DNA of 64,000 nt, from the NCBI GenBank assembly GCA_965644295.1, contig CBFFRP010000164.1:1-64000 (forward strand), written 5' to 3'. Positions 413-58,385 of this stretch are shown here, in pieces (position 1 is the stretch's first letter; each line of letters opens with the position of its first letter). This DNA is from Paraphysomonas bandaiensis (lineage: Eukaryota; Protista; Chrysophyceae). The position numbers and the translations under genes are program-made. The notes under the pieces were generated by a model that saw only the letters and a list, made by a program, of their open reading frames with translations, had not been told where the DNA came from and made no database searches.

Positions 413-1400
413 TCATAGAGTGGTCTTGGTACAAAGGGCCCGTCGTAACCCCAGTTGCAGGGGAAGAGGGATTTTCGAGCGGGGGTGGAGTGGTTCCTGG
501 CATGTCGCTGAGCCCGGATCAAGAAGGGATTTCCACCATGTAGGGTCATCCTGGAGCTGTTGTGCTACAGGGTCAAGTCCAGGAGGTTTGGCATGATGTT
601 CACGGAAGTGCGCATTAATGCCTTCATGAATGTCTTGCGGTGTTGTGAGGATGTGTCCGTCAGTTGTTTTCACCGTGGTAAGTCGGAGTGGTGTTTTGAC
701 CTTGAGACCAATTTTCTGAAGAATTGCTTGAAGTCTTTTCTGCTGTAGCAGTGCCTCCATCTGATTGGTGCGAGCCGTGAGTCTAGTCCGCATTTCTGTC
801 CTGGCTCTTCCATGAAGAAGTCCTCTCAGTCGCAAGGCAATTCGGAGAAGGTTTTTCTTGGTGGCTTGCTTTTCGTTCCAACCCAGGATTACTCGTGGGT
901 CCGCGTTGCGATGGCTGCACCAGAAGTTGATGTCTGATATGCCTTTGATGTGACCCTGAGAACTCCTGAGATAGGAGTCCCATCGGATGAACCATGCAGT
1001 GATGATTTCGTGGGTGGGGGTGGTTGCCGGGGGGCCGCGCCATCCATGCCGTTTGTATCCGGCAGAATTGAACATCTTTTGGATAATCCGCAAAACCATG
1101 ATCATTCCTTCCTGTATTACTCTCATTTCCGGGGAAAAGCCATTCTTGAACTTTGAGCGTTTGCGCTGACAACGTTCGTGTAGTCGTGTGCTATAAGTAC
1201 ATGCAGGACGCTTCGCTTCAAGCGAAGCCTGGAGGGTTATGTGATGGATGGCCGCTAGTCTGTTGGCTGCCACCTCAGGAGGGAGTATGGCAGACGATCC
1301 GTTGTCTAAATGTGGTAGTTGTGCATGAAGTTGGAGGAGTCTTGCGGTGTATGCCTGTACTTCCTTGGAGTCCTTCGGGTTTACATTGAGACGGGGGGAT
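413..1400 (-). pseudogene. LINE polyprotein part 2 (APE-to-RT linker), frameshifted and ending before any RT
   Basis: Removing one G from G6 at 1393-1398 joins ...HLRIP to RLNVNPKDSKEVQAY.... The frame stops at 413 and no RT motifs were seen in 1-412. Confidence 0.75.
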
Positions 1401-5954: not shown

Positions 5955-6126
5955 GGTGTGACAGGTAATTTGTCAGAAGCGTGGTGGTCAACAAAATGCA
6001 GCAGTAAGGGAGTGTAAAAGGCCCTGGGCACACTGATGTGACTCAGCCACAGTCTCAATAGAGACATTGGGCTTGGAGCTGGTTAATAGAGTGAAACTTT
6101 ATGTTGGACTGTATTTGCCATCGTAG

Positions 6127-20976: not shown

Positions 20977-22200
20977 TTAGAGGAGAATATTAGGATATTG
21001 TTGGCAGAATGCAGCATCCACCAATACCATAGTAGAAGGATCAAATTCCGTGACTCGACCATAGCAGTGAACGTCATAGGCACTCCATTCATATGTAGAT
21101 TGAAACAACGGGCAATAGAGGTCTATACGTAACTGGCGACGGCCAGCCCACCGCACATAAGAACATTCGACAACATACATCGTTGTATAACAATTCGGCA
21201 GATTAAGTTCATCATAGAAATCTGAACCCCATGCACGCAAATCTACATAAATTGTTTGACCAGGTGACACCCCTTCAATAGGAATACGTTTCAAACGTGC
21301 ACGTTCAGATTTTGCCATAGCAGCAGAAAACAACAGAGGGAACAATTGAGGTTTCTGCTCACAGAACGACTGAAATTGCGAGGTGGAAGCGATATCCTGT
21401 GACCATGGAAGCCATAATAACGAACCATCCTCAAACTGAACTTGGAATTCCATTCGAGAACGAACCTCCGGATCTCCTCGGTATGCAATCACAGCAACCA
21501 CAGTATACTGGTTAAAATCAATTTGCGCAACACGATATGCCTGCTCGGGCGTACCAAAGAACGGTTTGAGCCATGACATGTGCAGCACAACTTCAAAACG
21601 CATCACAACATGCATGCATGTGACATCAGCCTTATACGTGGAAACCACTTCGTAAGGACCTTTGAAACGAGGGTACAATTTGCTGGGCTTGTGTTGAGTT
21701 GGATCCAGCCGCAACAAAACTAAATCACCAGGCTGATATTCGTTCAAAGTATGTGCAGGCGTGGCAGACTTGCGCTTGTCTTGGATCTTGCGCTGAACAT
21801 CCATGGCAACCGCTCGAATCTTCTGTAAGTTCTCATTCAAAATAGACACATAACCCGCAGCAGAAGATTCATCCATAGTTAGTTCACCCAAACGAAAATA
21901 TGGAATATCAACGGTACCAAACACATATTGAAAAGGAGAGAGTCCAGTCTCACTACTGACTTCATCATTCAAAATGAACTGAATCAACATGTAACACTCA
22001 ATATCCCCCCATGAATCTTGCAACCTCTCATCGTGGACTAAACCCTGTAGAAATCGCAACAGCTCTCGATGAGATCGCTCGACCATGTTGGACTCATGAC
22101 GATTAGTTAATGACCCTCGAAATCGAACTTCAAACCACTTCAATAGAAACTCCTCATAGAACTCAGCACTCACGAAAACCAATAATAGCAGTAGATTCAA
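20977..22200 (-). CDS. 5'-truncated Gypsy integrase with GPY/F motif and chromodomain
   Basis: HESNMVER (Glu of DDE), TGLSPF, GDLVLL, KLYPRFKGPYEV, HMSWLKPF, and chromodomain YTVVAVIAYRG...EFQVQFEDGSLLWLPW. The first two Asp residues and the Zn finger are absent. Confidence 0.88.
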   Translation of the reverse strand: MNLLLLLVFVSAEFYEEFLLKWFEVRFRGSLTNRHESNMVERSHRELLRFLQGLVHDERLQDSWGDIECYMLIQFILNDEVSSETGLSPFQYVFGTVDIPYFRLGELTMDESSAAGYVSILNENLQKIRAVAMDVQRKIQDKRKSATPAHTLNEYQPGDLVLLRLDPTQHKPSKLYPRFKGPYEVVSTYKADVTCMHVVMRFEVVLHMSWLKPFFGTPEQAYRVAQIDFNQYTVVAVIAYRGDPEVRSRMEFQVQFEDGSLLWLPWSQDIASTSQFQSFCEQKPQLFPLLFSAAMAKSERARLKRIPIEGVSPGQTIYVDLRAWGSDFYDELNLPNCYTTMYVVECSYVRWAGRRQLRIDLYCPLFQSTYEWSAYDVHCYGRVTEFDPSTMVLVDAAFCQQYPNILL

Positions 22201-24826
22201 AAACTAATACCATCCACACAATAGCAAGATAAGCCCTCGGATAACGCCTTAACATCAATCTCTGTAGTTCCAGTCGGGAAAAACTTAACATGACAAATTG
22301 CATCCTCGCTTCAACCACAGAATTCGCTTGTAGTTAAATAGAATACCACAGTGAAATTAAAAGATACTGAATTCTCAAATGCTCATAAGATTTTGGATTA
22401 ACCTTTGCCTTATATATCCAGTATATAACCAAATGAGAATTACGTAGAGCCACTAATGGTCATGTAAATAGATTCCGCACTCAATGACATTAACCACAAG
22501 TATTTGATCATCATAACCTTCACGCAATTCAATTGCAGGAAATACGCTTCAACTCAAACACTTGTTCATTTCACCCGCCATTAGACACAATTGAATATCC
22601 GTGAATACAAGTCCGAAGTAAATCAGAGAGACACTAACCTTAGGACTGAATAACATTCCACCAAATACTCGTAACAGCCAAGTTGAGCAAGTCTTAGCAT
22701 AAACCTTGTTGTAACCAGACATACTACAACAACGTTGTAAAACTCTTATTTCATTCATCATAAACAATAGAAGCGAGTTCACAAAAGGAACTTAATCACT
22801 CCACTATTCTGAATTTTAATCCATAATATTAACAACCTTAACTGCACAAACTTCACATCGACTCAATTCATCATCCGGAACTTAATATAGACTCATCAAC
22901 TCTCGTAAACTCAATTCAAAGATTTGATTCTTGCAACATTCTAACACAAAATCATATTCGTAAGTTGAAAATCAACTCAAAGCACTCTCCAAACATTACA
23001 AGAAAATTCACTCCAACAACTCCTCAACTTGATTTCAACACTTGAACTCATCATCAACATTACTGACACCGTTGTAACTTTGAATGTAGAACTTTGCATC
23101 AAAATTAAGAATTACCCACCAAAGAAACACCAAGAATAATACTTTCCATATTATTCACAATCACACTTCTTTAATTCCATAATATACAACCTCGAATCTC
23201 GAATTTTAAACATGAACAACCAGAAGTTCACACATTCCGAATATCGAACAAATAAATCAAGTTTGAACAATCGAACATGCTCCGCTTTTGAAATATCAAG
23301 ACTCCAAACTTCTCAAATCTTTTCAACCAATGTAATAATACCATAATATTGTCTCAAATCTCTCGTACAACCTTTTCAAGAAGACACACACAACTGAAAA
23401 CCGTAAGTGTCTTATAACCCGTTTTGACAACTGAATCTGAAAGGTAATCAACAACCATCATACAAATATTTGTGCACCAAACTCTACTTTGACATATCTT
23501 ATTTTGTACAATAATTGTAATTCATCCTCTCGATTTTAGAACGAAACAATATTTGATTAATGAAAATATCACCGGACGGACCAATCAATAACCACCCCAA
23601 TCAAAACATCATTCATCTCATTCTGAATATATACGAACATAGTGCACTGGTCTTATATTTCAGTAACCATACGTAACGATTTCCCTCAGATACAACATTA
23701 TAATATTGTAAACAATAGAATGATCCACTCAACGCAATCTCATTGAAAAGAATCCAACAATAGAAATATCAACTGAAATAACAACAAGCTCGCAAAGTAA
23801 TAACTCCCATTTTTAGTCTCGAAGTTAACCATCACTAGCATATATAATTCTTTCGCATGCAATAGTATTATCAACACCATACCTCCAAATATCATTGACA
23901 CTTAACCATCGATCTCATACCCGATGCATAATACAGTCAAACAATTGAAAAATACCAGCGACAAAGTTTTCAAAATTTCATTGACATGTTGTATCACTGA
24001 ACCATATTCACTTCAACGTAACAGAAACTTCAATTTCGAACAACTTTCAATCAACAACTAACCATGAATTTAGACAAGTTAATTCGTTGCATTTATGGAT
24101 ACCATATATTCAAATTCAATCCCATTGCAGATCCAAAAAACTGAGTAACCATTTTATAAGCATCAACAAGACAATGAATATCTCCAACTCCTTCCTGTTT
24201 CTATTCATTCTCTTTAATACAAAATGCAAAGCACACTGAAAACATATTGCTCCAAATATACTTTCCTCATACTGAAATTACAACATCAAAATTTACATTC
24301 TGTTCACATAGAGGCAATCGCGTTCATTAAAAACTGTTTACTTCCTCTGAAATTAAACTTTCGTATATGAATCATATAGTATTGCAAAACTTATCCAAAC
24401 CATACATGACCCTTGCAAAACTATAACAATAATTGCTTGCCATTGATGTTGAAACCATACCATTGATATTGAACAACTCTTTGCAGACTTTTTACCAATC
24501 TCAGACAATACTGTCATTCATTGAAACTTGATAAATTCACTGAAACCCATTCTTATACATTGAACTTAAAACCGAATTATTCTCTCGTAGTAGTCAGTAT
24601 CACACAGGACTATTGAGCATAATTTTAACTAGACATTATTGAATATGGATCACACTTCTCAAAAACTCAGAACTCCCATATTGTAACTCCCATCACAACG
24701 GTAAGGCTCACAACAACCTCAATCCATTCCGAAATAAAATGAATAAAACCATGATAAATATTGCATCATCATAAATAATAAGATGAACTTTGAAACAAAA
24801 GACACTTGCTGGATTTGGAATTGAAC

Positions 24827-31778: not shown

Positions 31779-34700
31779 CTACATTCGGCCGGAGTGAATA
31801 ATATCGGACTGCATTTGTCTTCCCTTTAACGAACCTAAACTTTGCTTCACTAGCCGTTCATTTAAAGGTAATGCGTAACCCTGCTCCACAAAAAAAGTGT
31901 AAAAAACACTGGAATCAACACAACAACTAACCTTAAGTTTGTTTTCATGCAACAGACGAGCAATAAAATTATCTACAGGGGCATTGATAGGCATGGACGA
32001 CAGAAGCTTTCTCGCGCCGGTTGGGGACAGTAAATACGCATGTAGTTGCCATAAGTAGTTCACTCGCAAAAGTTTGTGTTCATATTTTATATTCGCATTT
32101 CGCGGCTTGACATAACCGAGGAAGCATATATCCGTGTCACTAGGCAGCTTTCCTATTACATCACATACATTTGATAAGAAGTTTACAGTACTCTTTATTT
32201 CTGCGTCATCCTCCATCACAAGAAAGTATTTCGATTTGTTAGACTGCCACTGACTAAAGAGGTGAATATTGTCGATGATATCTCTTTCACCATTTCTTTC
32301 AAACTTTAACAACTGACGGGGATAGTCGATACATATCGGGGGCATGTGCTTCATGGCTTTGACACCGTTACCTCCAAGCTTAAATTTACAGGTATTCTGT
32401 GTCCAATTGTATATACACTTCCATACTATTGCATGACTAGCCGCACATGCTCTTTCAGAAGGTGTCATCGGAGTTGCAGTATTCACAGCGCATGATGTGT
32501 CGAACTTTGCGTTCAACGTTGAGTCCCAGTGGGTACCCACCGCCTCAGAATGTATGGACTCGGTTGTGGTCGTTGAATCGGTCAATGTGTTTAATGAATT
32601 TGGTGCACGGTGTCCTCTAGCATCCACTGCAGACACACGGATCCCAAGGAGATTGTGCTGCTCACATTGGTGTAGGCACTGCCTCCATCTGTAACGAACC
32701 CAAACCATAAACACCCATACACCGTAGCATATTCAGAAGTATACCTGTCGGCCCTAGCATCTAGGTTAATTATAAAGGCGGGACATTGTCTATACAGAAG
32801 TTGCCATGCCCAGTTTAACAGCTTGGTGGCAGGGGTCGAAGAAATGGAAAACGAAATACGACAGGGATTGAACAAGCATTCAGCACATGTGAACATATCC
32901 ATCAACACATCTCTTCTAGATTTACCTACCCATGGCTTAGGAATCCGCAGCAACCCTCTGTTGATAGCATTAATATACCTTGCGATCATGGAAATGCGGA
33001 ATTTACCTGATTGCTTCAGATGCAACTATGTGAAGGTTTCGTAGTGTCACATTGGACTGAGAGTCAAGCCGCAGTTCCGCCGTAGCTATGGAGGTGCATT
33101 CACGTAGAAGGCCACGCAACGAACAAGTGTACAGTGCTACGACAACCTCAAACATGCACACAGACAAAGCGGTGAGAATATGAAGCACTGCCTGAGCAAG
33201 ACAGTCAGGAAGGTGATCATCTTCATCTTGCTTCAGCAATTCAGAGTAAGCCACCTTCATAATGTGATTGACAGAAAGAACAGCATCTTTGAATACTTTC
33301 GGTGATACCGACGTGCACTGAACAAAGTCTATCGGCAAAACCAAGTCATCGGAACCGTCCATGCCTATAGGCCGAATGTCTTGATCAAGAGGTGATGCAC
33401 TTGGATACCGCATTGCCTGCAGAGAAAGCGTACAATTGCTAGTGGCAGACGATACATACGTCTCAAGTACTTTCGTCCACCCCTCATAACCGCGTCCCTC
33501 ATACTCCATCAGACCACTCTGCAGAACACCGTCCAAAAATCGTAGATTCTTAATAATATCTGATACATCTGCAATTTCAATACTTCCATTCGTATTACGT
33601 AAAATAGATTTCCAGTGGTTTTGCAAAGACGAAACAGCGTAGATCTCTAAATAGGGCACACTAGTAGTAGTTTCTGTTTTCTCCATAGTAGATTGAGCCA
33701 TTCCATTGATTGAAATCAAACGATCAATACAATAAACTGTTGGTGTAGCGCCAGGTGTACCCGTTTCACTCCCACGCTTCAACATAGTATACCAGGCCTT
33801 GTATATAGCACAAAGAGATTGAGCCATGCTGCCTACATTCATAACTCCCAGATGCGCAAATATATCTGGTGATGATATACAGTGCTTCGTATCACTTTCC
33901 GTTGAACATCGAGTTAACGCCTTGTGAATAATGTTCCACAAACCCTCATGCCTGGTAGTAACTGTAATTTCATTCAGAAATACCTCGTCCAGTAATGACA
34001 CATCACCAACGGAAGTAATTGGGATTGAAGAGCTTTCCCTATTCCACTTGCGCAGGACATTGCGAATGTCTTGTCCAGGAGTATTTTTATTCATGTGTGG
34101 TGAATAAGTTTCAAGTGTAACATCAGCACATATTTGCACGTAGTGCTCAATGTGTTCATAACAATACACAACTTCTGTTTCATTCAATAACTGGAGCAAC
34201 TCTTTAGTACTGTGTGGTGCATACTCTTCAGCAACCTTGACGAGCTGGCTTCTTAATGGCACCAATGTCTCTATCAATTTCATCTGCACATCGTGTAAGG
34301 AAAACGAATTTCAATGAATAGCACGCATACATATTTATACTTCCGTATTTGGAACATAGCTGCCCGAAAAGCTGGTATTAAGTAAAAACACTGACGAAAT
34401 CTGGAACAGTTACTGAAAGATGATATTCGAGACATTAGCTCTGGTAAAGCGCATAGCACACCAACAGCACATCCGCGTACATCTACATTGACGCTCAAAC
34501 AAGCAAACTTTTTGAGAAAATAAGTCAAAGTGTCTAATTTATCCTGGATGACGACTTTCAGTTATAAGAACATCATATAGCAATATACATACCGACAAGA
34601 CGGTCGACTTTAGTATAACAGCAGTGGCAATGCAAGTTTTGAGGTGCGATACAACCATACCAGAGCTCTCCAATGGAGGTAGGTGTTCATCGTCACTATC

Positions 34701-38093: not shown

Positions 38094-40122
38094 CTATTTA
38101 ATCAAACCACTGGTGTTTCTCTCGATAATGTATTTTGACATATCGCTCGGGTATACAAATGAGCCGTAATTCAAACCCGAATTAAGTCTATCGCGCTTAA
38201 TTCGGGATGCTATATACGCTTCTGCAACCTACGTATAAATACAGTAAATATGACTGAATGGTTAGAAAATCGAAAGTATATACCATCGGGTCTCCATATC
38301 GTGCCATGACAGAGGCTTGCATTGCCAATGCGAGCATGTCTACTAACCGCCTGGCCTCACGCTGTATCATAGGACTCATTATGTTCTCAGACGCTGCACG
38401 GGAAACTCTTTTCTCTATATCCGATATAAACTCGTCTAGAGAAGGATCCATTCCGCATGCGAGCTTTATGTCCCTCAATAATACCGGGAAAGATTTGTGA
38501 GCACGCAGAACATCCAGCGCAATTATATTCCCAGACCCCTCCCATATTGCGTTCAGAGGACTTTGACGATAGAGCATTCCCATGTTAAAATCTTCGACAT
38601 AGCCATTGCCCCCAAACGCCTGATTGACGCAGTATAAATATCAATATAAAAGGAACGTAAAAACATGTGCACACCTCCATGCACTCGTATGCGAATCCAG
38701 GATATCTCTTCGTTACCCAGTACTTTCCAACTGCAACCCCAATTCGGAAGAGTTCCTGTGCCTCTGTATACTCTGTATCAGTGCGCTTCAGTTTCTCCAC
38801 CATTGGCCCAGCCCCAGATGTCAAAAACGCGGCAGGAATATTACGATGATGCAGAGATGAATCATAAGCGCCGGCCAAGTGCAGGGCAGTCAATGTATGA
38901 GCTTCAGACTCCACACACAGATCAGTCAGTAAATTTTCCATAAGTGGATGCGCAATGAGAGGTGAGCCAAACGACTTTCGATGCGTCTACAAAGCAAATA
39001 AAACAATTGTAAAACAAATCCAGAAAGATATCGCAGTGTGAGCTCACCACGTGATTGAGGGCTTGTTGCAAAGCTCGTCGTGCCCCCCCTGCACTCCCAA
39101 GGACACAATCTAGCCTGGTACTCTGTACCATCTCAATGATAGTCTTCACACCTCTGCCCTCCTCACCAAGCATAACAGCATGTGCATCATCATACTCCAC
39201 TTCACTGGACGCGTTTGCTCGATCTCCGACTTTGTCTTTGAGTCGCATTACTCTAAAGCCCGTGTTACGAGTACCATCAGGTAGCCACCGGGAGACGATG
39301 AAGCATGATGGGGTATCCTTTCCACGAGTCATAGCCAGTGTTAAAAATATATCGCTCATCGGAGCGGAGGTGAACCACTGTGAATACCGTTATTCCACTG
39401 TAGAAATTAAGAAATGTACATTGTATCATCCATACCTTGTGGCCGCGCAGCGTGTATGATGCATCATGACCAGTGCGAGCAGGATCCAGTGGAGTTGCCA
39501 ATGTCGTGTTTGCTCTCACGTCAGACCCGCCTTGTTTCTCGGTCATCGACATTCCTGCTGTTATAGCCACCTTTTCTTCAATCGGTACATCCCGAGGATC
39601 GTAATCCATGGTACACAACTTGTCAACGAGGTCAGTCCTTCCCCACTTTAGCAAAGGTGGAACAGCCGCGGTGGTCATTACCAAAGGACAGCAGTGTCCA
39701 GGCTCGAGCTGATTCTCCATATAAATCAGTCCCGCTCGAGCAACATGTGAACCGGCTTCAGCAGTAGCGTGACCAAATGCCGATACACCATTGCGAAGGC
39801 CTTGCTGCATTAAGTGGTGGTAGCTGTCGTGATAATCAATCACATCAATTCTACGTCCATAGGAGTCAAACTGACGTAATGTGGGTTTATTCTTCTCCGC
39901 CAAAGTAGCATGCTTCATGTTCGCTGCTGTGCCACATAACTCCCCATACTTATGAAGTCTGTCTCTGTGAGTCTCAAGGATGAATTCTGAACTCGATAGT
40001 ACAGGATCTGCAGTGCATAAATTAATATTCTCCAGTGGAGATGATTGATTGAAAACAGTATGTGTCACACTGGAGAATCCTCTCATGGAGCATCTCCTCA
40101 TCACTCTATTTAGTTTCAGCAT
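38094..40122 (-). CDS. AidB-like acyl-CoA dehydrogenase, multi-exon, probable mitochondrial presequence
   Basis: EPGHCCPLVMT, GMSMTEKQGGSDVRAN, RLKDKVGDRANASSEVE, GKYWVTKR, PLNAIWEGSGNIIALD. Confidence 0.92.
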
Positions 40123-43100
40123 ATATATAATTGAATTCGTTATGTATTATCACAATCGTATTGTACTTAATCAAACAAATCTCTACTGTTTTGAATGAGC
40201 TGATTAGCTTCTTATACACAGAGTTGTAGAATAAATACCAGTATGAACTATGAACACAAGCAACTTATATGACAGTCTATAGACATACTATACTATAGTA
40301 CTATACTATATGTACAGTAGTATGATACTATCATTGCTGTATGATAGATTCTCGTAGAGTGGTCTATACAGCAGTGTATGGTATACCACTTTCTAGCTAT
40401 TATTTCAATCAATATCCCCTAAAAAACTAAATAACAGGGTTTTATCATAATAGTCAGTATTTATAGTACAAAATATGATAAAAATCTGATATTTTGATGT
40501 CATGTCTGTTGAACTGTACAGTATCTTGTAACTGTAAATAGATGACACTGATATCTTGTTAAGCCAACTTGCAAATGCTGACCGTTCAATTCAATTGACC
40601 TCAAGCATTGAGCAAACTATTAAAACTCAAACTTAGTAGAGAATTCATAATAAATATAACATTGATGTTGATTTCTATATCAGTCATTGATAGTGTATAG
40701 TTAAGAGTGAGGATCATATGTACAAAATCAATAAACAAAATACATAGAGATAACTCCATCTATATCAGTTGAATCAGATTAATGGAGAAAAAGGATTACC
40801 TTATATGGAACTCTTTTTCTTTTGCTCTCGACGCCGATGCTCGGATTGGATCATTTCTTCCCATCCACTCCATATAAGGAGACTTTCTAATATGGACTCT
40901 CGGCGCCGATTGTAAAGTGTTTTCATTTTCTTTTTGAAGAGTTCCGTATAAGGCGCCTCTAAGCTGTATTGCCTAAGTGTTTCCGTGTTGGACCATATTA
41001 AATACCGCAATTCAGGTCACCCAAATATACATGTATAAATCCGTTGCGTAGAATGGCATGAAAACACACATTTCTATGAAAATATAGGAGTTCTAGGGAT
41101 ACGGCAGCTTCGATCAGTGTCTACTAAGAAGTCAATACAGATCACTCTGCCTTCATTGAATCTTAATGGATACAGGAGATGATAAGGGGTCCTCATTCGG
41201 AGGTATAGATATGACCACATATGGCAATCTAATAGTATACAGTAAATAGATTGAGTGAAATGACGTTTGATCTGATGCATTGTATTAGCTATTGGGTTTA
41301 ATAAACAATATAATACTCAAGCTATGAATTAATTCATATGATTGGGTGCTGTTACCTACAGGAGAATTCTGAAAGCACGTCCTATGTGTGCCATTCCAAG
41401 TTGAACTTGTAGGTAGCTAGATGTTCTCTGCAAAATCAAACTAATATAAGTGGATATGCTTTCTTAAAAAACATAAATGAAAAGAACATAGATGACATTG
41501 CATCTGCGTACATTACAAATATCTACCTCGAAATGACTTCGTTTAGCATATTAGAATTTCACTCAATATCTTGGTATCGCCAAATATGAGATCAGGGTTA
41601 TGATATAGGAGGGTGCAGAGCTACAACCGCCATGAGTCCCTCTACAGCACCTTCTTATCTTATTCTACTGCTATGACTGATTCCTCTCTGCCCCTCATAT
41701 TTTCTTTCTTTCTTCTCCTTTTATTCAATGCAGATTGAAGCTTAGTAATAGTAAGAAGAATGTTGTGATTATTAGAGTGTAAAGTGATGAATACAATAAT
41801 ATCGGAAAGAGTGAATAATAATGCAGAACATAACTATTATGCACAACGGAATAGTTAGAAGTATAACTGACAATGACGATCAAATATCTTTCACATATAC
41901 TATAATTAATTCAGCTCATGATATATTTATTGAACATTATATTTCACATATTATGCTATCTTATATTAATAATAATGAATATGATGAATCCACTCAATGA
42001 AATATACTCCACCTCAATGAAATAATCAGTAAACTGTGGATTATAGTTGGACACGAGCACCTTGCCTTCGGGAATTTTTCATACCAGGAGGGGGTACATG
42101 TATATATGTCTTCCTCGAGGCCGGTATTTATATAAGTAGTTGTGAAGTCAATCTGAGGGAATTTGAGTTTCATAATAGATTAGTGTTCGCAGTGATGTCG
42201 CCTTTTAGCTACAGGGCTGTACATGTCTTTGGGTGAATCCCTGAGCGACCAGTCGAGCCTTGAACTTAACTTCATTTTGTTTCCTTTATATTTTGAAGAT
42301 AAGCTTTCCTTTAATGGCTAGTGCTCCCGGTGGTAAAGGGGCATATCTCCAACATCCTTTCCTTTGAAGAGCGGATACTACTCTGTTTATTGTGTTTATT
42401 CACTGCTGTTGATGTTTCCCTGAGATCGCATCTTGTACACACTTTGGTGTATTCGTTAGTTCCTCAATATCATTACGACTACTAGCATGCATATAACAAT
42501 ATCGATATTGTGTATTTTACGTATGTATTGTTTGTCATGTGCCATATGATACACTGTGCAATAACATCACATCTGTTTGCACCATTACCAAATTTGCGTA
42601 GATTTACCATTATATTATCATTGAACATTCTATTATTTCACATGTACTATCTTAAATTATGATGAATCCTAATATATTCATTGTTGTAACGACATCAGCA
42701 CCAAAGCAACCCCTAACTTCACAAGTCATATTGTACCGAAGTGAAGGATTAGTCACCTAGTAGCTTCTCAAAGTAAAATTACATAGGAACTAGCTTGGGA
42801 TAATCTCACGTCGTGCTCATCTCACCAAAACACAAAACATAAAATATATACACACTAAAGACAACATCCTACTCTGACACTGCTGACGAAACTGATAACA
42901 CTGAGCGATGTTATAGTAGACATGACAACAACATAATACACGACCACCAAAACCGATAAATTAGACTTATCTCACCATTAATAGTTAACACTCTTAAGCT
43001 GATCTAGGTCATTTAAAGAAACTTTCTATGATCACTTCGAACATCTCTGACTCTCTCCTAATTACTTTTTCAAATGCTTTTTTATCATATATAACAACTC

Positions 43101-43691
43101 TACACAGGGTTTTTGTAGAGATATCAGAGGATAAATTACCAGCAATTTGATATAGATTAAAGGATAATATGATACAATATATTGCGATTTTGAACAGTCC
43201 GTCGGGGTCTACACATTCATGCTCTATTCCTAATGATACTCTATCTCTAATCTTAATATGTTCATAAAAATAGGTCCCAACAATTATAATGACATTACCG
43301 TTACTGGTTACCAGGCTCTGGCTCAGATAAGACTAGTTTGTCGCAGTTGTGAATTATAAAGATTGAGATTTATAACTTCCTAAATTTCAGCTCTTCAATG
43401 GAAAGTAACTTTGAAACTGAAGTTACCATATTGAGAAAAGTTGTGAAGTTAAGATGACTAACAACCACCTTGCCAGCTGAAGAGAGGGGTTTTATTATTT
43501 CACTGAACTGTTCGTAAGGCTACACAGCTGAGTGGAAAATGTTTTGTAATACACAGGAAAGGTATGACTATCTCGCCCCAGTTTTTGTTAGTGTAGAAAG
43601 ATCAAAAGAATCTGCTATGTCACTTATATGTAGAAGCTAACTATCGTATGTGTGAATACAGAATAATGACATCAAAAGTACACAAGAGTTA

Positions 43692-46600
43692 CTATCCGCG
43701 TAGTTTGCTTTGTGCCTTCGCTACAACAGGGTCAACCGTATCTGCGAACCCTTCTCTTCGTTTTTCCCACTTTGCAATAGACTCCTCCACGGCGACACTC
43801 CCTGCATCTTCCGACGACTGTAGTCGCTGCACCACCATAGAGTGCCACTCATCGCGGTTAGTCTTCAAGTGTGTAACAGCATTGATAAGCTTAGGGAAGA
43901 TATGGGTGAGTGCCAAAAAGAAAGGAGCAACAATGAAATCTGTAAAGTTGACAGATAATTCATCTTGGCGAGTGGTATTTCTATCCATGTTGGGTGACAC
44001 CGGTAGGCCCTCACGCTTCTCTCTGTCTCCCTGTGAAAAAAATTCTTCTACGACCAGATCACTCCACTTTTTAGAGACTTTCCAGCATTTCGCAGGATTG
44101 CTTATATCCGCTGTGTGAAGGATGGCCTTGAGGAGAGTCTCGCGATCCTTGTCCTCCAGAGATACCTTCTCGATAGTATCTTCTTTATTGTCTGCAGACA
44201 CTGTAGACGCACATCCACGGCTGTCCAGAGCCATATCATCCATAAACTTTCTCCCAACCAGATCGTCCACATCGCTCTTTAGAGAAAAATGACACGTCAT
44301 GTCAGTAGCCAGAACGATACTTATCATGGTCTTTCGAACGATTTTGTAAGTTGCGTTATCAAGTGATGAAAATATGTTACATTTCGGTTGATTCGCTGTT
44401 TTGAACGCCAGTGCACAGTGATGATTTTCTAGCACACTTATGTCATTGTACTGGATTGCCAAGTTTGTCTTCGCGTTGACGTGGTAGAGGTTATTCGTAC
44501 CAGTATGGTCAAGGTCGTGAATAATTGCTCCTACAACAAGGGCCAAAATATCATGTGACCTTAACAATTCGAAAGCGCCTAGCTCAGACACAAACACGAA
44601 ACATGTCTGGGCCACGTCAGATATGTGGTAATAGTTGTGGTATGGGTTATTATGTCGGGTCATAAACTCCTGTACTTTATCCATAAAGCACCGCCACACA
44701 GTGGCTTCTATTTCAAATCCATCTGAGAGCCCCAAACTAGACAGAATCATCATCGACAATGGAAGAAGTTCGTGTGGTTCTAAGTCCCAGACATCGAAAT
44801 CCCAGCTATAGCAGTTACGAATTGGATGGTTATTATCCCGGAATATTCCTATCGACATGGGTATATGCCCCCCCTCTCTGGCTACAGAGGGCCACTCCTC
44901 AATAGTAGAAGTCATAATCCGCCTCAATGATCGTTCGAACATAGCAAGAGGAAAGTATTCACCGTCTTCGGAGTCACCATGGTGTACGAGAGCCTGCCCG
45001 TGAAGCTGATGCGATACCATCCAGTCATAGATTTGATGTGCCGTGAATGGCCCTTGGGGTACACCCTCTTTATCCTTGCAGTAGTACCCTCCGCTTTCGG
45101 CAACTGCAAGGCTCAGTACGGGTGGTTCGTTTTCACCCCATACACTCACAGAAAGGCGCTTGAAGCTCATATCAGAGGTTGGAGAGCCAGCCTGAAGCTG
45201 CACAACACTCGCACGACGCGCTTTCAAATTGACCGACTTCTCGCGGGTCAGGATCAGATTTCTCTCTGCAGTTTCTGTAGGCGTGCTCTCTCTCGTATAC
45301 TGCGAGGCTAACCAGTCAAGATGTTGTTGATCCAGAGTGCTGGCCTGTTCTAGAACGTGCTTGAATGGATTCCTCATATCATCGTCCGTGGTGGCATTCT
45401 CGGGGCTAACCCCTAAGTCACTGATTACCTCTCTCAGCTGCCGACATATCCACATTTTGTTCACGCTGCCGGACTCTGCTGTAGCAACAACCTCTCCGGA
45501 GTAGTTATTTACATTTCGGAGAATAGATTGCAGCTTGGATCCTGCCTGCTTCACTTGCACGGACTGGGCCGCAGTGTCCCCCCCGTGTCTGGATCTGCTG
45601 TTCATGCGACGAGCCACGTAACGGTTAGGCCCAGGCCCAACATTATCACTGTCGTCATCAGAAATATCAGAGTCAGGGCTATCCGCGAGTTTCAACAGAA
45701 ATATTAAGTCTTCTATTGTGCCAATTCGACCTGCTGGCGCTGGTACAGGATTCATACTTTTAAGTTCATCTTCTTCTTTCAACTCTGTTCGGATTCTACT
45801 TTTCATTTTGTCTAGTGATCCATCGCTTGCTAGGAGTGACTCCTTCAGATGGGGGCTGAGTACAGCCTCCAAAACAACGCATATTTCTCCACACTGCGGC
45901 TGCTGTGACTCATCAAGAGAGTGGTCATTTCGAGTACGGGTTTCTAGTGGATACCAAGTCCCTTCCACACTGTCATCCGCGGTACTATCAGACGCATTTT
46001 CCACAATTCTCACGTCCGATATTGCCAAATCAATATAACCAATTAAATCATCCGTTAAAAATATGTCCATACTGTTAATAGAAATCGTCAGCTTACTGCA
46101 GAGCCACTGCCGCTGAGATAGTGGAAATTCAAACTTATGCTTGAAAAAGATTTCTTCAGTAGAATCGAATGACAGGTGGCTTCTCATAGATTCGCCATCA
46201 ACGAGCCCCTTCACATAGCAGTTACCAGACCCGTACACATCAGGGCATATAATGTTACGAGCACTTAGAATAGTGACATGAAGCTCCACATCAGACTTCC
46301 CAGCATTAGAATTGGTAGTATTCGCTAAGGAGGCAGGATCTACTATATCGATGGTTTCCTCCGTATCCATATCACACTCCCCTGACAATTCATTCGCGTA
46401 CTTAATCATGTATACCCAGTCTGTGATATCAGCTTCAGAGGCACCGGCAAAGAGAAAACTTCTATTTTCATCCTGACAGCTTTTATCTTTCAAGTACTGT
46501 TGTGCATCAATTCGGAACACAAATTCTTTTTCGTGTTGAACATAACTTGGTTCAATTTGAACAAACGAACCACGGAGAAAAATTACTTGGGTAGGGGTGG

Positions 46601-49600
46601 CGGGAGAGGTGCTGTAATGATGCTTGTCACGATATAATGAAATATTGCCCGGAGTATTCGACGTACTTGCTGTTACCACGCAGTACCTTTGTTTCCAATC
46701 ACCTCCCTGAATTCTACGCTTGATGTTCTTTGTCAGAAAGTTGGTCGTCACCTTCTTCTGGATATCTAGCATGCCTGCTTTGAGAAAAGCAGGTCCCATG
46801 CCGCTGACTGGCATGACTTTTTCCGCGAATATTTTCCTTTGTCGTGCTTCGATATCGGATTTGTGCTTCATTACTAGAGTAGATATTTTCTCCTTTTGCT
46901 CCGTGAGCATGCGGTGAGTCACAAGACTGAACAAAAAGTCTGAAACAAAATGGTAGTTCTGGCTGTAGTCGACAACCTTCTGCAGATTCGGGACCTCTAC
47001 AAGGTAACCAAGCACCAGGAGTCCGTGCATTTCTCGCTGTAGACGGTACTTATGTCCACTTAGAGGATAGCAGTGATAAAGCGATTTCCAGCTAAATTGC
47101 TTGCCTATATGGGCAGCAGTCTTCAGAATCATCTGCTGGCAGCTACTAAGGCGATCTAATAGCGATCCATACGACTTATCGATAGCAACAGGAAGTGGAC
47201 ACGATGCTAATCCGAAGTCCTCAGTTAGACTAACATACACCTCATTGAGTGCTCCCGCGCCCCCTTCGGTAACTCCAGAGGTGGAACTCGTTGTGGTCAT
47301 GATGCTCCCTCTTCTCGCTGCTGCGACAAGACTACCGGCACTGAAAGATCCATCCTCGTTCAGTGTTGGGAGACTCGATCCATCTACGCCGGAAAGGGTA
47401 GTAAACACAAGTACGGGCGGCTGGGCTGCCTGAAGTGTCTCAACAAGCTGGATTATCATCCACGGATTTCCCATGCACTTTTGGTCAACAAGTGTGATGA
47501 TTTGTTCACTGATACTCGTCACATTCCCTCCAAGCTTTGAGAGAAGAAGGTCCTCAGTCTCCTCAGGAGGGAGGCCATCCAGCTTCAAGAAGGTAACACC
47601 AGGGGACCCAGCAAGAGCTTCGTAAACCGAATATGGTCCGCGAAATAAACTTCTGTGCTTAGCTATTGGGCGAAGTGACACAATGAGCATGATAGATGGG
47701 GATCCCAATCCAATGTCCGGGAGCTGAGCGTCCCCTAATATCTTCTGTGTGTCGGCCTTACTTCGAACACCAGCCAATGTTAGCATAAGAATCAAAACCC
47801 ATGACTCATCATCCACTCTGTGTGCATCATCTATCACCACTATGACTTCTTGCTCACACGATATGTTATACAGTAGATAGTAGTATAACTGCAACCGCCG
47901 GCAAGTCTTCTGCGACGCAGAGAGGTCATCAAGAAGGGTTCGCGCCTCCTCTGCAATATCCTCGTATTTATCGCCGTCATTGCGACACTCCTTGAGTAAA
48001 ACCTCTCCGAGTGAGGTTCCCAAAGCCCTGTCTAAAAGAGGACCATCGCATAGCAATTTGTAGCTTCCCCTTTGTAGCATGTCTCGCAGTACCTCAGTTC
48101 GGGTGGAACAGCCATTGTGGCCGCGAAGTGCTTTGCTATCAAGATACTGTTGAATAATCATGCTAAATGGTCCGTAAGCTTCAAGCGAATATGGACTGGC
48201 AGGAGCATAGTATACAGGTGCGGTGTTAGGAATAGTATTTTTGATAAATCTGCCAATCATGTGGGTTTTTCCGACACCTGCCTCACCTTCGATGATGATG
48301 GTGCTCGATTTTCGAGATTCAACGAGTGCGATCTTAGCTTGAAGAAGCGTCCGAAAGGCTAGAGCCAGTCTACTCTGAACCTTCCGTAGCTCTGACTTGC
48401 GGCAAACTATCAGTTCGATAGGATCACCAAACTTCCAGGGGTCATTGAGTGCACTTTTAGCGTCATGATAAAACACAGAAAGCCATTTCATCTTTATCGG
48501 GACATCGGGTAGAAAGAAACGTGTTCCTGATACATTGAGCGCTATCTCGTTCTCTGTGACTGGGGTCGATAGGGCTTTGGCCACAGTGGCAACCTCTATC
48601 ACCTTTCTCCGCAAAGACACAAAGTCAGACACCTCAGATGCAATGATGGGTCGAATGGTAAATGCTTCCGTGAAATCCATGGCTAGGTTATGTGGAACGA
48701 GTACGTGAATTTCAACCGAGGTCCCACTGATCCGATTTAAGCTTCGAAATGATGTCAGCTTTTGCACGGGTGACATGTCCTTTCTCGTGGCACCTGTGCC
48801 GACTGGAAGTTTGAAACTAGTAGTAGATCCGCGCCGGGCCGCGTCAGAGACTTCCCCACCTGGCAGAACCTCGGATCCTGAATTATGGGCGATAGATGCA
48901 CGTAGAATAGACTTACGAGGTCGAGCTAATGGTGCACTTAGTCGCATATGGTCCATCATAGCGTTACTTTGTCGACGAGGAGCATATGAGACACGTTCCG
49001 CGCCACCAAGGCTACTCCCAGGTGAATGCATGCTCTGAGAGCTGGACTGGATAATGTGGGAAGGCCTTGTAGGGGTAAACATACCCTGTAGAGACAGAAG
49101 AGACCGATGAACAACAGCATTCTGCAGCTGCTGCATATGGATGTCGTGATATATGTTTGGTCCCTTAACTCCAGTAATGGTGGTGCAGGCGTCCATGGGA
49201 TACGGGCGGAATACCTTAACTGGCATCGTTTTCCCCTTCACCTTGATTTCGTCGAGCGTCATGAAGTTGAGGGTCCCGTTACATGAGTTCTTCGTTTCCC
49301 AGTCGCACAACACTCCTCCGCCATCAGCATTAGCTTTTTGCATTAGTCGGGCAGAGAGATTCACCGAGTCTCCTAAAACCGTATACTCTCTCCTCGTCTT
49401 TCCGCCGACGACCCCGCAAAATACATCCCCAGTGGTAATACCCACTGATGCAATAAGTCCCAAGTCGTAAAGCCCCTCACAGAGTAGCAGAGAGGCTAGT
49501 ACCGCTCGTGTTGGATCATCATCATGCGACACAGGAGGAAGTCCAAAACACGCGATAAGTGTAGACCCTTTGTCATCCATCAGAAACTTGTTAATTGAAC

Positions 49601-50552
49601 CCTCGTATTGGTACACAGACTTCTGGACGGCCATCAGTACCTCATGAACTTGCACCATAGCCTCGTCGTAGACCGCTGCAGCCAGCAAATGCTGCTCCTT
49701 CAATCCCAGGTTTACGAACAACACACAACAACGTCGCAGTTCGTTTCCCCATTGCTCGTCCTCCGGACTGTCTCGATTAAGGTTAGGGAGGACCGCGCCT
49801 GCAACGTAGCTCTTAATTCTCGTCTCCAGCATGCGGTCCGTATCTGACATATTATTTCGCAAAGTGTTCATCTTTGAAGTTTTACGGACTAGCTTTATCT
49901 TGTTCCGACCATCCATATCAAACCGGGCATAACCATCGGGAAAAATATGATCTGCAGTGACGTACTCGCTGATAATTTTCCACACCTCCTTCGAACACAC
50001 AACCTGACCAGAGACTGATTTGTGCTCCGCACTGAAAGCCTGTATAAGCGGCTCACCCACAGCTAGGTACTCCACACGACCAAACACACCGCCCACGTGC
50101 AACACACTAACTCGACCGAATCCTATACCAATCTTAACACTCAGTTGAACGCCTTCTTCCATTAGAGATTGATCAAGATTTTCTTGAATTGCATATGCGC
50201 ACTGCGCAGCACGACGAACAGTAGTTTCCATGTCACCACTCTGACTCTCTGGCCACAGAACAATCATAGCATCTCCGGCGAACTTAAATACATCCCCACC
50301 ATCACTAGCAATGAGACGGACCATTTGACTGAAGTAAGAATTTAAATGCTTTGCTAAACCCTCCGCACCTTTGCCATTCAGCGCCATTGCCTCACTCAGC
50401 GCAGTAAATCCACTCACATCACAAAACAAGCAAACCGTTTCATATTCTTGACGCCAGGGAACAGTAGGTGTTTTCTTCTGATCACAGTCTTTGATTAGCC
50501 TGTCGACTATCAGTCCCGGCACATAACTCGCCAGACACTCGATAAATTTCAT
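43692..50552 (-). CDS. Soluble adenylyl cyclase (ADCY10-like, two class III domains) - STAND/AAA - PH - C2 - GYF-like - class I cyclic nucleotide phosphodiesterase fusion, intronless
   Basis: Cyclase: CDVSGFT, KFAGDA, NKFLMDDKG, REYTVLGDSVNLSARLM, KVKGK. NTPase: GEAGVGKT, VVIDDAH. PH: WKQRYCVV...DWVYMI. C2: VTILSARNI...DDLIG. GYF: YYCKD...QGPF...DW. PDE: NPYHNYYH, HDLDHTG, LENHH, LATDM, HTADISN. Confidence 0.95.
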   Translation of the reverse strand: MKFIECLASYVPGLIVDRLIKDCDQKKTPTVPWRQEYETVCLFCDVSGFTALSEAMALNGKGAEGLAKHLNSYFSQMVRLIASDGGDVFKFAGDAMIVLWPESQSGDMETTVRRAAQCAYAIQENLDQSLMEEGVQLSVKIGIGFGRVSVLHVGGVFGRVEYLAVGEPLIQAFSAEHKSVSGQVVCSKEVWKIISEYVTADHIFPDGYARFDMDGRNKIKLVRKTSKMNTLRNNMSDTDRMLETRIKSYVAGAVLPNLNRDSPEDEQWGNELRRCCVLFVNLGLKEQHLLAAAVYDEAMVQVHEVLMAVQKSVYQYEGSINKFLMDDKGSTLIACFGLPPVSHDDDPTRAVLASLLLCEGLYDLGLIASVGITTGDVFCGVVGGKTRREYTVLGDSVNLSARLMQKANADGGGVLCDWETKNSCNGTLNFMTLDEIKVKGKTMPVKVFRPYPMDACTTITGVKGPNIYHDIHMQQLQNAVVHRSLLSLQGMFTPTRPSHIIQSSSQSMHSPGSSLGGAERVSYAPRRQSNAMMDHMRLSAPLARPRKSILRASIAHNSGSEVLPGGEVSDAARRGSTTSFKLPVGTGATRKDMSPVQKLTSFRSLNRISGTSVEIHVLVPHNLAMDFTEAFTIRPIIASEVSDFVSLRRKVIEVATVAKALSTPVTENEIALNVSGTRFFLPDVPIKMKWLSVFYHDAKSALNDPWKFGDPIELIVCRKSELRKVQSRLALAFRTLLQAKIALVESRKSSTIIIEGEAGVGKTHMIGRFIKNTIPNTAPVYYAPASPYSLEAYGPFSMIIQQYLDSKALRGHNGCSTRTEVLRDMLQRGSYKLLCDGPLLDRALGTSLGEVLLKECRNDGDKYEDIAEEARTLLDDLSASQKTCRRLQLYYYLLYNISCEQEVIVVIDDAHRVDDESWVLILMLTLAGVRSKADTQKILGDAQLPDIGLGSPSIMLIVSLRPIAKHRSLFRGPYSVYEALAGSPGVTFLKLDGLPPEETEDLLLSKLGGNVTSISEQIITLVDQKCMGNPWMIIQLVETLQAAQPPVLVFTTLSGVDGSSLPTLNEDGSFSAGSLVAAARRGSIMTTTSSTSGVTEGGAGALNEVYVSLTEDFGLASCPLPVAIDKSYGSLLDRLSSCQQMILKTAAHIGKQFSWKSLYHCYPLSGHKYRLQREMHGLLVLGYLVEVPNLQKVVDYSQNYHFVSDFLFSLVTHRMLTEQKEKISTLVMKHKSDIEARQRKIFAEKVMPVSGMGPAFLKAGMLDIQKKVTTNFLTKNIKRRIQGGDWKQRYCVVTASTSNTPGNISLYRDKHHYSTSPATPTQVIFLRGSFVQIEPSYVQHEKEFVFRIDAQQYLKDKSCQDENRSFLFAGASEADITDWVYMIKYANELSGECDMDTEETIDIVDPASLANTTNSNAGKSDVELHVTILSARNIICPDVYGSGNCYVKGLVDGESMRSHLSFDSTEEIFFKHKFEFPLSQRQWLCSKLTISINSMDIFLTDDLIGYIDLAISDVRIVENASDSTADDSVEGTWYPLETRTRNDHSLDESQQPQCGEICVVLEAVLSPHLKESLLASDGSLDKMKSRIRTELKEEDELKSMNPVPAPAGRIGTIEDLIFLLKLADSPDSDISDDDSDNVGPGPNRYVARRMNSRSRHGGDTAAQSVQVKQAGSKLQSILRNVNNYSGEVVATAESGSVNKMWICRQLREVISDLGVSPENATTDDDMRNPFKHVLEQASTLDQQHLDWLASQYTRESTPTETAERNLILTREKSVNLKARRASVVQLQAGSPTSDMSFKRLSVSVWGENEPPVLSLAVAESGGYYCKDKEGVPQGPFTAHQIYDWMVSHQLHGQALVHHGDSEDGEYFPLAMFERSLRRIMTSTIEEWPSVAREGGHIPMSIGIFRDNNHPIRNCYSWDFDVWDLEPHELLPLSMMILSSLGLSDGFEIEATVWRCFMDKVQEFMTRHNNPYHNYYHISDVAQTCFVFVSELGAFELLRSHDILALVVGAIIHDLDHTGTNNLYHVNAKTNLAIQYNDISVLENHHCALAFKTANQPKCNIFSSLDNATYKIVRKTMISIVLATDMTCHFSLKSDVDDLVGRKFMDDMALDSRGCASTVSADNKEDTIEKVSLEDKDRETLLKAILHTADISNPAKCWKVSKKWSDLVVEEFFSQGDREKREGLPVSPNMDRNTTRQDELSVNFTDFIVAPFFLALTHIFPKLINAVTHLKTNRDEWHSMVVQRLQSSEDAGSVAVEESIAKWEKRREGFADTVDPVVAKAQSKLRG

Positions 50553-51012
50553 ACTCTCTAAGTAATATCTCGTCTACCAGTAAGTAACATACATGAACAT
50601 GATAAGATGAGTATAAAATTAATCTGTTATCTATCTAATGCTTTATATTTATTGCTCTTATATTTGAAAGATGGATCTTTGATTGTGTGTATATGTTACA
50701 TAATCAACAATACCAACATATACATATACATATACATATATATATATACTGCTATACATCATGAATTTTAGATATAGCAACAGACGTATATATATCCTGG
50801 CTATATGCATGCCCCATGGTACAAGTGTACGTGTTTTTTAGTGTTGAAATTTTTTGACAATATATCTAATATACAAAAACTGAAATTATATTGATGTGAC
50901 GATTCAAGATATATAAATGGAATGTGGTTGTTGCTGAGTGTGTATTTAGGTAACAAAAAGGTGAATATGATAAAGAGGAATTGTGGTTAGCCAATACATA
51001 ATATACTTGACA

Positions 51013-51609
<597 letters not shown>

Positions 51610-57656: not shown

Positions 57657-58385
57657 ATGATTACAATGCGCAGTCTTATGAGAGGAAACTTTATCTTTCG
57701 AAAGATTGAGTCAGTGCCTATAAGACTAACCCACACGAGATCGTTGCCACGACTACAAGTTGTCATGGATATTGACGAGTGTATGATTCATACTGTAGAT
57801 ATGGCAGGCTATTACCGTCAAAATGAAGATAGAAAGGAAGGAGTCAGTAGAATAATTGAAGGTATTGACTCGCATGTACTGAAATGTGAAGACGGTGTTG
57901 AAGCTATAGTTCATCATAGACCTGGTCTACTTGATTATCTTCGAATGATCAGTGAGTTTACGGATGTATACGCATTTACTGCGGCAATGCCTGTATATGC
58001 GCGTCCATTGATAAAGCATTTGGACCCCGACCAAAGTATATTTAAAAACGTTTGGTACAGAGAATCGTGTACGAAGATTAAAATTCCTGAAGGAGAATTT
58101 TACACTAAGGATCTTGCCAAAGCTATGGGGGAAGTGTTTAATGACAAACGTACAATTTTGGTTGATAACAATATATTATCATTTATTCCACAGCCCATGA
58201 ATGGAATTCCAGTACCATGCTTTTACGATAACCCTAACGACTTCGTACTTGCAACTGTTCACAGTGTTTTGCAGACGCTGGACAATGAAAGTGATGTAAA
58301 GCCTCTACTGCACCAGGCATATAGAGTACGTACAAGAATAGATTCGATACCAGAAATTAGAGAGCTTTGGCAACAGTCACAGTAA
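57657..58385 (+). CDS. FCP1/NIF-domain (HAD, CTD small phosphatase-like) protein, probable mitochondrial presequence
   Basis: VVMDIDECMIHT, RPGL, FTAAMPVYA, YRESC, YTKDL, ILVDNN, PMNGIP. Confidence 0.92.
   Translation: MITMRSLMRGNFIFRKIESVPIRLTHTRSLPRLQVVMDIDECMIHTVDMAGYYRQNEDRKEGVSRIIEGIDSHVLKCEDGVEAIVHHRPGLLDYLRMISEFTDVYAFTAAMPVYARPLIKHLDPDQSIFKNVWYRESCTKIKIPEGEFYTKDLAKAMGEVFNDKRTILVDNNILSFIPQPMNGIPVPCFYDNPNDFVLATVHSVLQTLDNESDVKPLLHQAYRVRTRIDSIPEIRELWQQSQ

Follow-up and report, generated by a model that had tools for sequence, protein, structure and literature searches.

A transcribed fusion of an sAC-type cyclase with a class I phosphodiesterase, joined through STAND, PH, C2 and GYF modules, in a chrysophyte flagellate and its stramenopile and rhizarian relatives

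We analyzed a window of 64,000 nt on contig CBFFRP010000164.1 (assembly GCA_965644295.1) of Paraphysomonas bandaiensis (Chrysophyceae), in which one intron-free open reading frame (ORF) of 2286 aa runs from ATG to stop on the minus strand (43692..50552; ORF list and RNA contig). A preliminary description had read this ORF as an enzyme that both makes and removes cyclic AMP (cAMP). From the N to the C terminus, the protein carries a tandem soluble adenylyl cyclase (sAC)-type cyclase, a conserved domain of 115 aa, a STAND NTPase, a PH, a C2 and a GYF domain, and a class I phosphodiesterase (PDE). By Pfam scan, Guanylate_cyc matched two stretches (E 1.8e-18), followed by AAA_16 at aa 744-924 (E 2.3e-7, slightly below the curated cut-off), PH at aa 1279-1386, C2 at aa 1423-1534, GYF at aa 1823-1859 (E 0.007, below the cut-off) and PDEase_I at aa 1971-2228 (E 6e-80). 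Together with PDB alignment, predicted folds and the RNA contig, these matches bear out the single chain of cyclase, P-loop, PH, C2, GYF and PDE given in the preliminary description. The highest hydropathy over 19 residues is only 1.75 and lies within the cyclase, so the protein has no clear transmembrane helix.

The cyclase-PDE fusion is real and is transcribed as one chain. Four sequencing runs were examined for the window, and in run X5 a single 7644-nt contig extends across 43044-50673 with no joint. A transcript thus spans the whole ORF, a point on which the preliminary description had staked its reading. Contigs of the same run skip the introns of a neighboring gene, which indicates that X5 reads RNA. 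In run X11 the ORF is tiled by three contigs with overlaps too short to form bridges, and run X16, a poly(A) metatranscriptome, covers its 3' part. The transcript product P0002 (source label Paraphysomonas, chrysophyte, taxid 36769) is identical at 2223 of 2231 aa without a gap (99.6%), and its cluster also contains a 2286-aa transcript product; X5 and the Paraphysomonas transcript products are possibly one data set. That assembly or gene calling merged two adjacent genes is vanishingly improbable, given that 2286 codons form one open frame, that an RNA contig crosses all of it, and that an identical domain order recurs in dozens of independent records. Such a chimera was rejected on the P0002 match and the X5 contig.

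The cyclase half closely follows human ADCY10, the top PDB match for the N-terminal 467 aa (E 1e-43). PDB alignment and comparison with relatives placed the C1 domain at aa 28-205 (49938..50471, minus strand), with the metal-binding Asp45 and Asp94, Lys90 and Lys140, and the second catalytic domain at aa 238-452 (49197..49841, minus strand), with Lys322, Thr391, Asn398 and Arg402. In the ADCY10 alignment, D45, K90, D94, K140, K322, T391, N398 and R402 correspond to sAC D47, K95, D99, K144, K334, T405, N412 and R416. T405 is the adenine-recognizing residue of sAC, and its match here is T391; Table 1 of PMC12867704 gives the roles of the others. The metal Asp pair, the ATP-specifying Lys/Thr and the catalytic Asn/Arg named in the preliminary description are therefore intact by this alignment. 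Among 118 aligned relatives, K322, N398 and R402 occur in all 118, both metal Asp residues in every ungapped row, and Thr or Ser at the T391 position in 116. The N-terminal tandem cyclase is thus predicted from sequence to be a likely producer of cAMP.

Two positions depart from sAC throughout the family. The sAC F338 position is Asp in 118/118 relatives (Asp326 in the window protein), and the R176 position is Phe in 115/118 and Arg in none of the 118 (Phe173 in the window protein). Bicarbonate activation of sAC requires both K95 and R176 (PMC12867704, PMC12250328), and this pair is only half kept, with the K95 equivalent (K90) present and that of R176 replaced. In the sea urchin sAC the Lys is kept, the Arg is neutral, and the enzyme is insensitive to bicarbonate and activated by pH (PMC12867704, PMC12250328); non-mammalian sACs with a neutral residue at the R176 position are likewise described as HCO3- insensitive in PMC12867704. 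The bicarbonate control raised in the preliminary description is accordingly weakened: with Phe at the R176 position, HCO3- activation of the fusion cyclase appears unlikely. Control by pH would be a guess by analogy.

At the other end of the chain lies the class I PDE (43803..44840, minus strand), assigned by PDB alignment, family alignment and fold. The model of aa 1801-2271 reached a predicted local distance difference test score (pLDDT) of 90.8 and superposed on PDE9A, PDE4 and PDE1 in Foldseek and structure comparison, with a Z of 42.7 and a root mean square deviation (rmsd) of 2.3 over 323 aligned residues for PDE9A. Eight metal-pocket residues are listed for the Giardia PDE in PMC5617230. 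Here all eight ligands (H1972, H1976, H2012, D2013, H2016, E2042, H2045 and D2149) are intact, as had been stated in the preliminary description; seven are found in 43/43 fused proteins and D2149 in 42/43. By these residues, the C-terminal PDE likely destroys cAMP. A predicted complex of the cyclase and PDE scored 0.00 in a run made without alignments, which carries no weight either way.

The purine pocket of this PDE is unusual. The hydrophobic clamp (V2167/F2203) is kept. PDE9 Q453, the invariant purine-binding Gln, aligns without gaps with S2200. The pocket residues of the window protein recur across the 43 fused proteins (N2188 in 33, Q2196 in 29, S2200 in 30 and N2202 in 34). Because three neighboring positions changed along with that of the Gln, the pocket looks rebuilt rather than decayed. 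The three fused proteins that carry Gln are divergent brown algal and Chrysoparadoxa members. Described as a hallmark of PDEs in PMC7720076, the Gln is also gone in 40 of 102 PDE rows outside the clade of the fused family, and so does not occur in every protist PDE. Receiver-PDE proteins that group with Synstelium and Dermamoeba records are Gln-less too, and Acanthamoeba RegA is reported as an active cAMP-specific PDE with a KM of 19 uM (PMC3906536). In PDE5, the Q817A mutation lowered cyclic GMP (cGMP) affinity about 60-fold and left cAMP kinetics unchanged, according to PMC3069055. The fusion PDE is probably a low-affinity, cAMP-preferring enzyme. As a separate observation, the PDE of P0015, P0016 and P0017 (brown algal and Chrysoparadoxa) evolves fast; its M-loop is shortened, a Gln lies near the canonical position and the metal ligands are kept.

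Between the two enzymes, the P-loop NTPase noted in the preliminary description proved to be of the STAND type by motifs and fold (aa 725-1246; 46815..48380, minus strand). It has a Walker A GK[T/S], a Walker B DD, the sensor Arg961, the Pro1030 of GxP, and helical and winged-helix domains. Across 44 fused proteins, GK and the following T/S are each present in 44/44, R961 in 42/44 and P1030 in 43/44. A sequence search of this region against the PDB gave no match, and its placement comes from fold search only: in the model of aa 720-1400 (pLDDT 85.6), the NTPase part resembles CED-4, Apaf-1, plant resistosomes and archaeal ATPases, and the end resembles the PH domains of Akt (Z 15.7) and TAPP1 (Z 15.6). 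STAND proteins usually carry a sensor after the winged helix. Here one long helix attaches the PH domain to the winged helix in the model, and neither the Pfam scan nor the aa 720-1400 model contains a C-terminal repeat sensor (LRR, WD40 or TPR). The PH domain itself (46368..46790, minus strand; Pfam, fold and motif counts) has a conserved basic W-K-x-R motif, with W in 41/44, K in 36/44 and R in 39/44 proteins.

The C2 domain (45873..46295, minus strand; Pfam and ligand alignment) has an incomplete Ca2+ ligand set. At D1438, N1444, S1494, D1496 and D1501/D1502, the canonical positions, three of five acidic ligands are kept, so that Ca2+ binding seems doubtful. The second loop-1 position is Asn in 11 of 24 proteins, with no Asp among the residues listed for the 24, and this weakens the Ca2+ control through C2 that had been suggested. 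Stramenopile members have the C2; none was detected in the proteins from Plasmodiophora or Hondaea. A GYF-fold domain (44913..45107, minus strand; weak Pfam match and fold) is packed ahead of the PDE and aligned with U5-52K chain 4bws_C at Z 7.2 and rmsd 2.7 over 61 residues, a middling score for a small domain. The predicted folds thus uphold both assignments that were weak in Pfam, AAA_16 and GYF. The STAND module between the enzymes likely acts as an on/off switch, and the PH/C2 modules are likely to hold the protein at a membrane; STAND gating and membrane binding, as the preliminary description had them, are plausible.

The linkers add further elements. Behind the cyclase, a Ser-rich and poorly conserved linker (48732..49172, minus strand) contains RRQS (526) and RRGS (573), and ahead of the GYF and PDE domains lies RRAS (1779; 45207..45218, minus strand). 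RRxS is the consensus of protein kinase A (PKA). The 42 cyclase-to-PDE regions of the family hold 129 RRxS sites against 33 expected from local shuffles (3.9x), compared with 0.9x for RRxA, 1.4x for SxRR, a range of 0.9-1.9x over the control motifs, and 1.1x for RRxS in 11 other ORFs of the window. The clusters adjoin both enzymes, after the cyclase (43/129 sites at aa 500-599) and before the PDE (29/129 at aa 1750-1799). Upstream of the PDE there is also a conserved D-x-x-x-x-x-W-L helix (45288..45350, minus strand), with the Trp in 35/42 proteins, which is possibly akin to the N-terminal element of PDE1. PDEase_I_N matched one member, P0033, at E 0.017, and a search with it on the helix stretch of the window protein itself found no match.

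The conserved domain of about 115 aa at aa 608-722 (48387..48731, minus strand) was defined by a family profile. Built from 17 members, the profile matched members outside the seed at E 1e-34 to 1e-6 and zero non-family proteins among the sequences searched. Twelve Pfam families matched weakly, three of them ubiquitin-like and each of these by 1/17 members, with PI3K_rbd (1/17) the best at E 0.014, which is a weak lead to a ubiquitin-like or Ras-binding fold. A PDB profile search returned nothing below E 0.5, and the Atlas gave no or only low-recognition matches. This domain, Phe173, Ser2200 and the incomplete C2 ligands had all gone unmentioned in the preliminary description.

Similar proteins, which that description supposed may exist in other stramenopiles, were indeed found there by architecture search, and in Rhizaria as well. 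Among the best 120 of 2194 sequence matches, the same domain order occurs in Chrysoparadoxa, Nemacystus, Cladosiphon, Hondaea, Cafeteria, Chrysophaeum (shorter), Plasmodiophora and a Durusdinium assembly; public records label members merely "phosphodiesterase" or "class 3 adenylate cyclase". In a FastTree phylogeny of 281 PDE domains, 43 cyclase-fused proteins fall within one clade of 179, with P0048 outside on a long branch. IQ-TREE supported the clade at 95/88 on 50 chosen PDE rows (24 fused, 8 stand-alone and 18 others), a set without the brown algal, Chrysoparadoxa, Cafeteria and Chrysophaeum rows, which have long branches. In the cyclase tree, built on 48 chosen rows, the main groups recur, namely Plasmodiophora and its kin, labyrinthulids, a group with Cafeteria, and ochrophytes, with deep nodes at 84-94. 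The two halves have thus been inherited jointly, and since both trees share their main splits, the fusion is likely older than the divergence of stramenopiles and Rhizaria, transfer between them being possible.

The family has also come apart repeatedly. PDE-less cyclases of oomycetes, Paulinella and Amorphochlora are nested among the fused ones in the cyclase tree and are best read as PDE losses in at least five places, that in oomycetes being likely. About 80 stand-alone PDEs of around 410 aa are nested in the fused family (a fused-only clade was rejected in the approximately unbiased (AU) test, p-AU 0.0017), and 57 of 82 have an MGxxxS-type start, compared with 9 of 196 other proteins. Their placement and these starts indicate that this PDE was retained for being useful by itself; such PDEs likely arose by fission from the fused family and are likely myristoylated. 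The reverse, stand-alone PDEs as donors of the fused PDE domain, was rejected (p-AU 0.0017). The named records in the stand-alone group (P0142-P0225 and related) are chrysophyte (Chlorochromonas, Mallomonas, Ochromonadaceae) and have the same Gln-less pocket. A second cyclase-STAND-PDE group (P0054, P0070, P0080, P0102 and P0108, one from Cercozoa sp. M6MM) has a separate PDE origin with the Gln mostly kept, and a single origin for all cyclase-STAND-PDE fusions was rejected (union p-AU 0.001). In these AU tests both groups were named after the tree had been seen, under LG+G4 with no mixture model.

Several members stand out individually. P0121, a cyclase-ankyrin-PDE protein, may be a third independent fusion. 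The oomycete orthologues P0057-P0097 are without a PDE and often have a FYVE finger besides the PH domain. P0027, deposited as Durusdinium trenchii, is placed within the labyrinthulids with full support in both trees and is likely a contaminant contig or a transfer. The variants P0033, P0047 and P0064 show a GNAT acetyltransferase insertion, a WW domain at the C terminus, or a set of three PH domains without a PDE. In the aflagellate Hyaloperonospora, which is reported to have lost its zoospores (PMC3471859), the cyclase-STAND-PH core is kept. The flagellar role considered in the preliminary description is unsupported so far, as zoosporic oomycetes are without the PDE and Hyaloperonospora keeps that core; what speaks for the link is analogy, namely that CAPE is needed for sperm motility (PMC11032487) and that cyclic nucleotide genes peak in Phytophthora spores (PMC5322657).

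Among the 15 ORFs of the window that were scanned, nothing points to a clustering of cAMP genes. The fusion gene lies head-to-head, about 460 bp apart, with a ribosomal protein S9/S16 gene that has three GT-AG introns (51013-51609, plus strand). Pfam further identified a sterol methyltransferase (6988-8331, minus strand), a glycosyltransferase family 25 protein (31779-32732, minus strand), an AidB-like acyl-CoA dehydrogenase (39277-40146, minus strand), a NIF phosphatase (57657-58385, plus strand) and a 1544-aa ORF with ubiquitin-interaction motifs followed by a C-terminal protein kinase domain (10659-15293, plus strand). Two overlapping ORFs occupy a GC-richer, skewed stretch (413-5972, minus strand); in the long one, a SET domain immediately precedes an endonuclease/exonuclease/phosphatase domain, which suggests a non-LTR (long terminal repeat) retroelement with a SET domain. 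Weak Tf2-like SH3/integrase C-terminal Pfam matches at 20977-22203 (minus strand) are probably an LTR retrotransposon remnant.

We compared the fusion with known systems. ADCY10 has a STAND domain after its cyclase and a helical-repeat C-terminus, and sAC is not known to have a PDE. The fusion shares with it the tandem C1-C2 cyclase, the same catalytic residues and the STAND NTPase behind them, and differs in having Phe for R176, Asp for F338, and PH-C2-GYF-PDE in place of the helical repeats. As in STAND/NLR proteins (CED-4, Apaf-1, resistosomes), an N-terminal effector precedes an NTPase-helical-winged-helix core, but here a cyclase takes the place of the effector, and PH, C2, GYF and an opposing enzyme, instead of repeats, make up the sensor end. 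Amoebozoan RegA-type receiver-PDE proteins, Gln-less as well, belong to the wider PDE lineage next to the fused family; they are controlled by a receiver domain and have no cyclase.

The closest concept is CAPE of streptophytes, which likewise combines a class III cyclase and a class I, PDE9-like PDE in one chain (PMC5159850, PMC8115329, PMC11032487). In CAPE, the PDE is N-terminal and the cyclase C-terminal (PMC8115329), whereas here the order is reversed and a tandem sAC-type cyclase is followed by STAND, PH, C2 and GYF. The claim in the preliminary description that the two evolved independently agrees with this difference in domain order and cyclase type, on which it rests, the trees having been built without CAPE sequences. 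PMC8115329 also notes independent CAPE-like proteins in four saprolegnian species, so a fusion of class III cyclase and class I PDE in stramenopiles (Saprolegnia, Achlya, Thraustotheca) is already in print; these are described there as having the domain organization of CAPE, unlike the family here. None is named among the best 120 of 2194 matches, and the supplement of PMC8115329 has no Plasmodiophora, Hondaea or Cafeteria entry. In the open-access literature, with subscription journals outside its coverage, we found no description of a cyclase-STAND-PH-C2-GYF-PDE architecture. The fusion is CAPE-like in concept and sAC-like in its first half, and a member of neither group.

From what was observed, namely the domain anatomy, catalytic residues that are intact, a transcript, the range of the family and the joint inheritance of its halves, we lean somewhat towards reading the protein as a self-limiting, membrane-local cAMP module, in which one half makes cAMP and the other removes it, the cyclase is gated by STAND and PKA feeds back. 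The conserved catalytic sets, the STAND motifs and fold, the single PDE clade and the matching trees support this reading, and the RRxS clusters around both enzymes may add to the case for self-limitation. In such a module, the resting STAND state would keep the cyclase low. Recruitment to a membrane through the basic PH domain at the STAND sensor position, perhaps together with a partner on aa 608-722, would allow nucleotide exchange and release the cyclase; as the trigger, bicarbonate would be unlikely and pH possible. The cAMP made would activate PKA, which would phosphorylate the RRxS sites clustered after the cyclase and ahead of the PDE, so that synthesis is damped and/or hydrolysis boosted, and the tethered, probably low-affinity and cAMP-preferring PDE would clip the signal in space and time. 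Several points weigh against the self-limiting module. We infer every activity and every regulatory step in it from sequence. The Gln position is S in 30, T in 5, A in 4, G in 1 and Q in 3 of the 43 fused proteins, that is, the Gln is gone in 40/43, and PMC3069055 terms it critical for substrate binding; that RegA is an active Gln-less precedent we infer by analogy from receiver-PDE architecture only. The brown algal and Chrysoparadoxa PDEs are divergent in sequence, and several members have no C2 and GYF. The cyclase tree forces at least five PDE changes, some possibly due to cut gene models, and a PDE lost at least five times makes the fusion dispensable. Finally, RRxS is equally enriched, at 4.2x each, in 12 oomycete cyclases that have no PDE and in 95 unrelated PDEs, and thus marks cAMP-pathway enzymes generally, and the 42 linkers counted are related sequences.

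Repeated loss of the PDE, its fission into stand-alone enzymes and the long variable linkers would also fit mere tethering, with the enzymes separately regulated and the fusion only co-localizing them, without a coupled pulse; so would the finding that a similar cyclase-STAND was joined to a Gln-type PDE a second time, independently (p-AU 0.001). We regard this as rather unlikely, though well worth weighing, given that the fused order is conserved from Plasmodiophora to chrysophytes with matching trees and that a conserved helix and a PKA-site cluster lie ahead of the PDE. The four pocket positions that together turned conserved polar raise another idea, namely that the PDE is mainly a nucleotide sensor, which binds cAMP, AMP or another nucleotide, turns it over slowly and feeds back on STAND. 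It does stand at the sensor end of the STAND module, whose model closes with the winged helix, the long helix and PH and lacks a repeat sensor, but all metal ligands are retained, stand-alone PDEs without STAND share the same pocket, and some 660 residues, including PH and C2, separate STAND from the PDE, so that we consider a sensor very unlikely. A bolder picture, which we judge distinctly unlikely, is an NLR-like machine already present in the ancestor of stramenopiles and Rhizaria: the cyclase would serve as its effector, and the PDE, with its re-engineered Gln-free pocket, would read the cyclase's product and reset STAND, so that the protein alone would give cAMP pulses or oscillations, perhaps set off by a small GTPase acting on aa 608-722. 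Last, the protein might make cAMP and remove cGMP or a non-canonical cyclic nucleotide, as a node of cross-talk. The purine pocket is off the consensus of human, Giardia and Toxoplasma PDEs, and the nearest solved relative by sequence is the cGMP-specific PDE9; yet loss of the Gln hurts cGMP binding more than cAMP binding in PDE5 (PMC3069055), and the CAPE PDE is reported as PDE9-like and still cAMP-preferring, which leaves this highly improbable.

cAMP signaling in stramenopiles and Rhizaria is little studied, and this family, also represented in brown algae, labyrinthulids and Plasmodiophora, provides a concrete, expressed candidate from a free-living flagellate. A fusion of cyclase and PDE arose several times, in CAPE, the saprolegnian CAPE-like proteins, the present family and the second cyclase-STAND-PDE group. 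The family also lends itself to two natural experiments: a large clade of PDEs lacking the "invariant" Gln, which tests purine recognition, and an sAC-STAND protein with identifiable modules at its sensor end, which could make the role of STAND in sAC-type cyclases testable. A self-terminating cAMP module could in addition serve as a part for synthetic biology. In the organisms that carry it, the fusion is likely an ancient device for cAMP signals that are brief and local.

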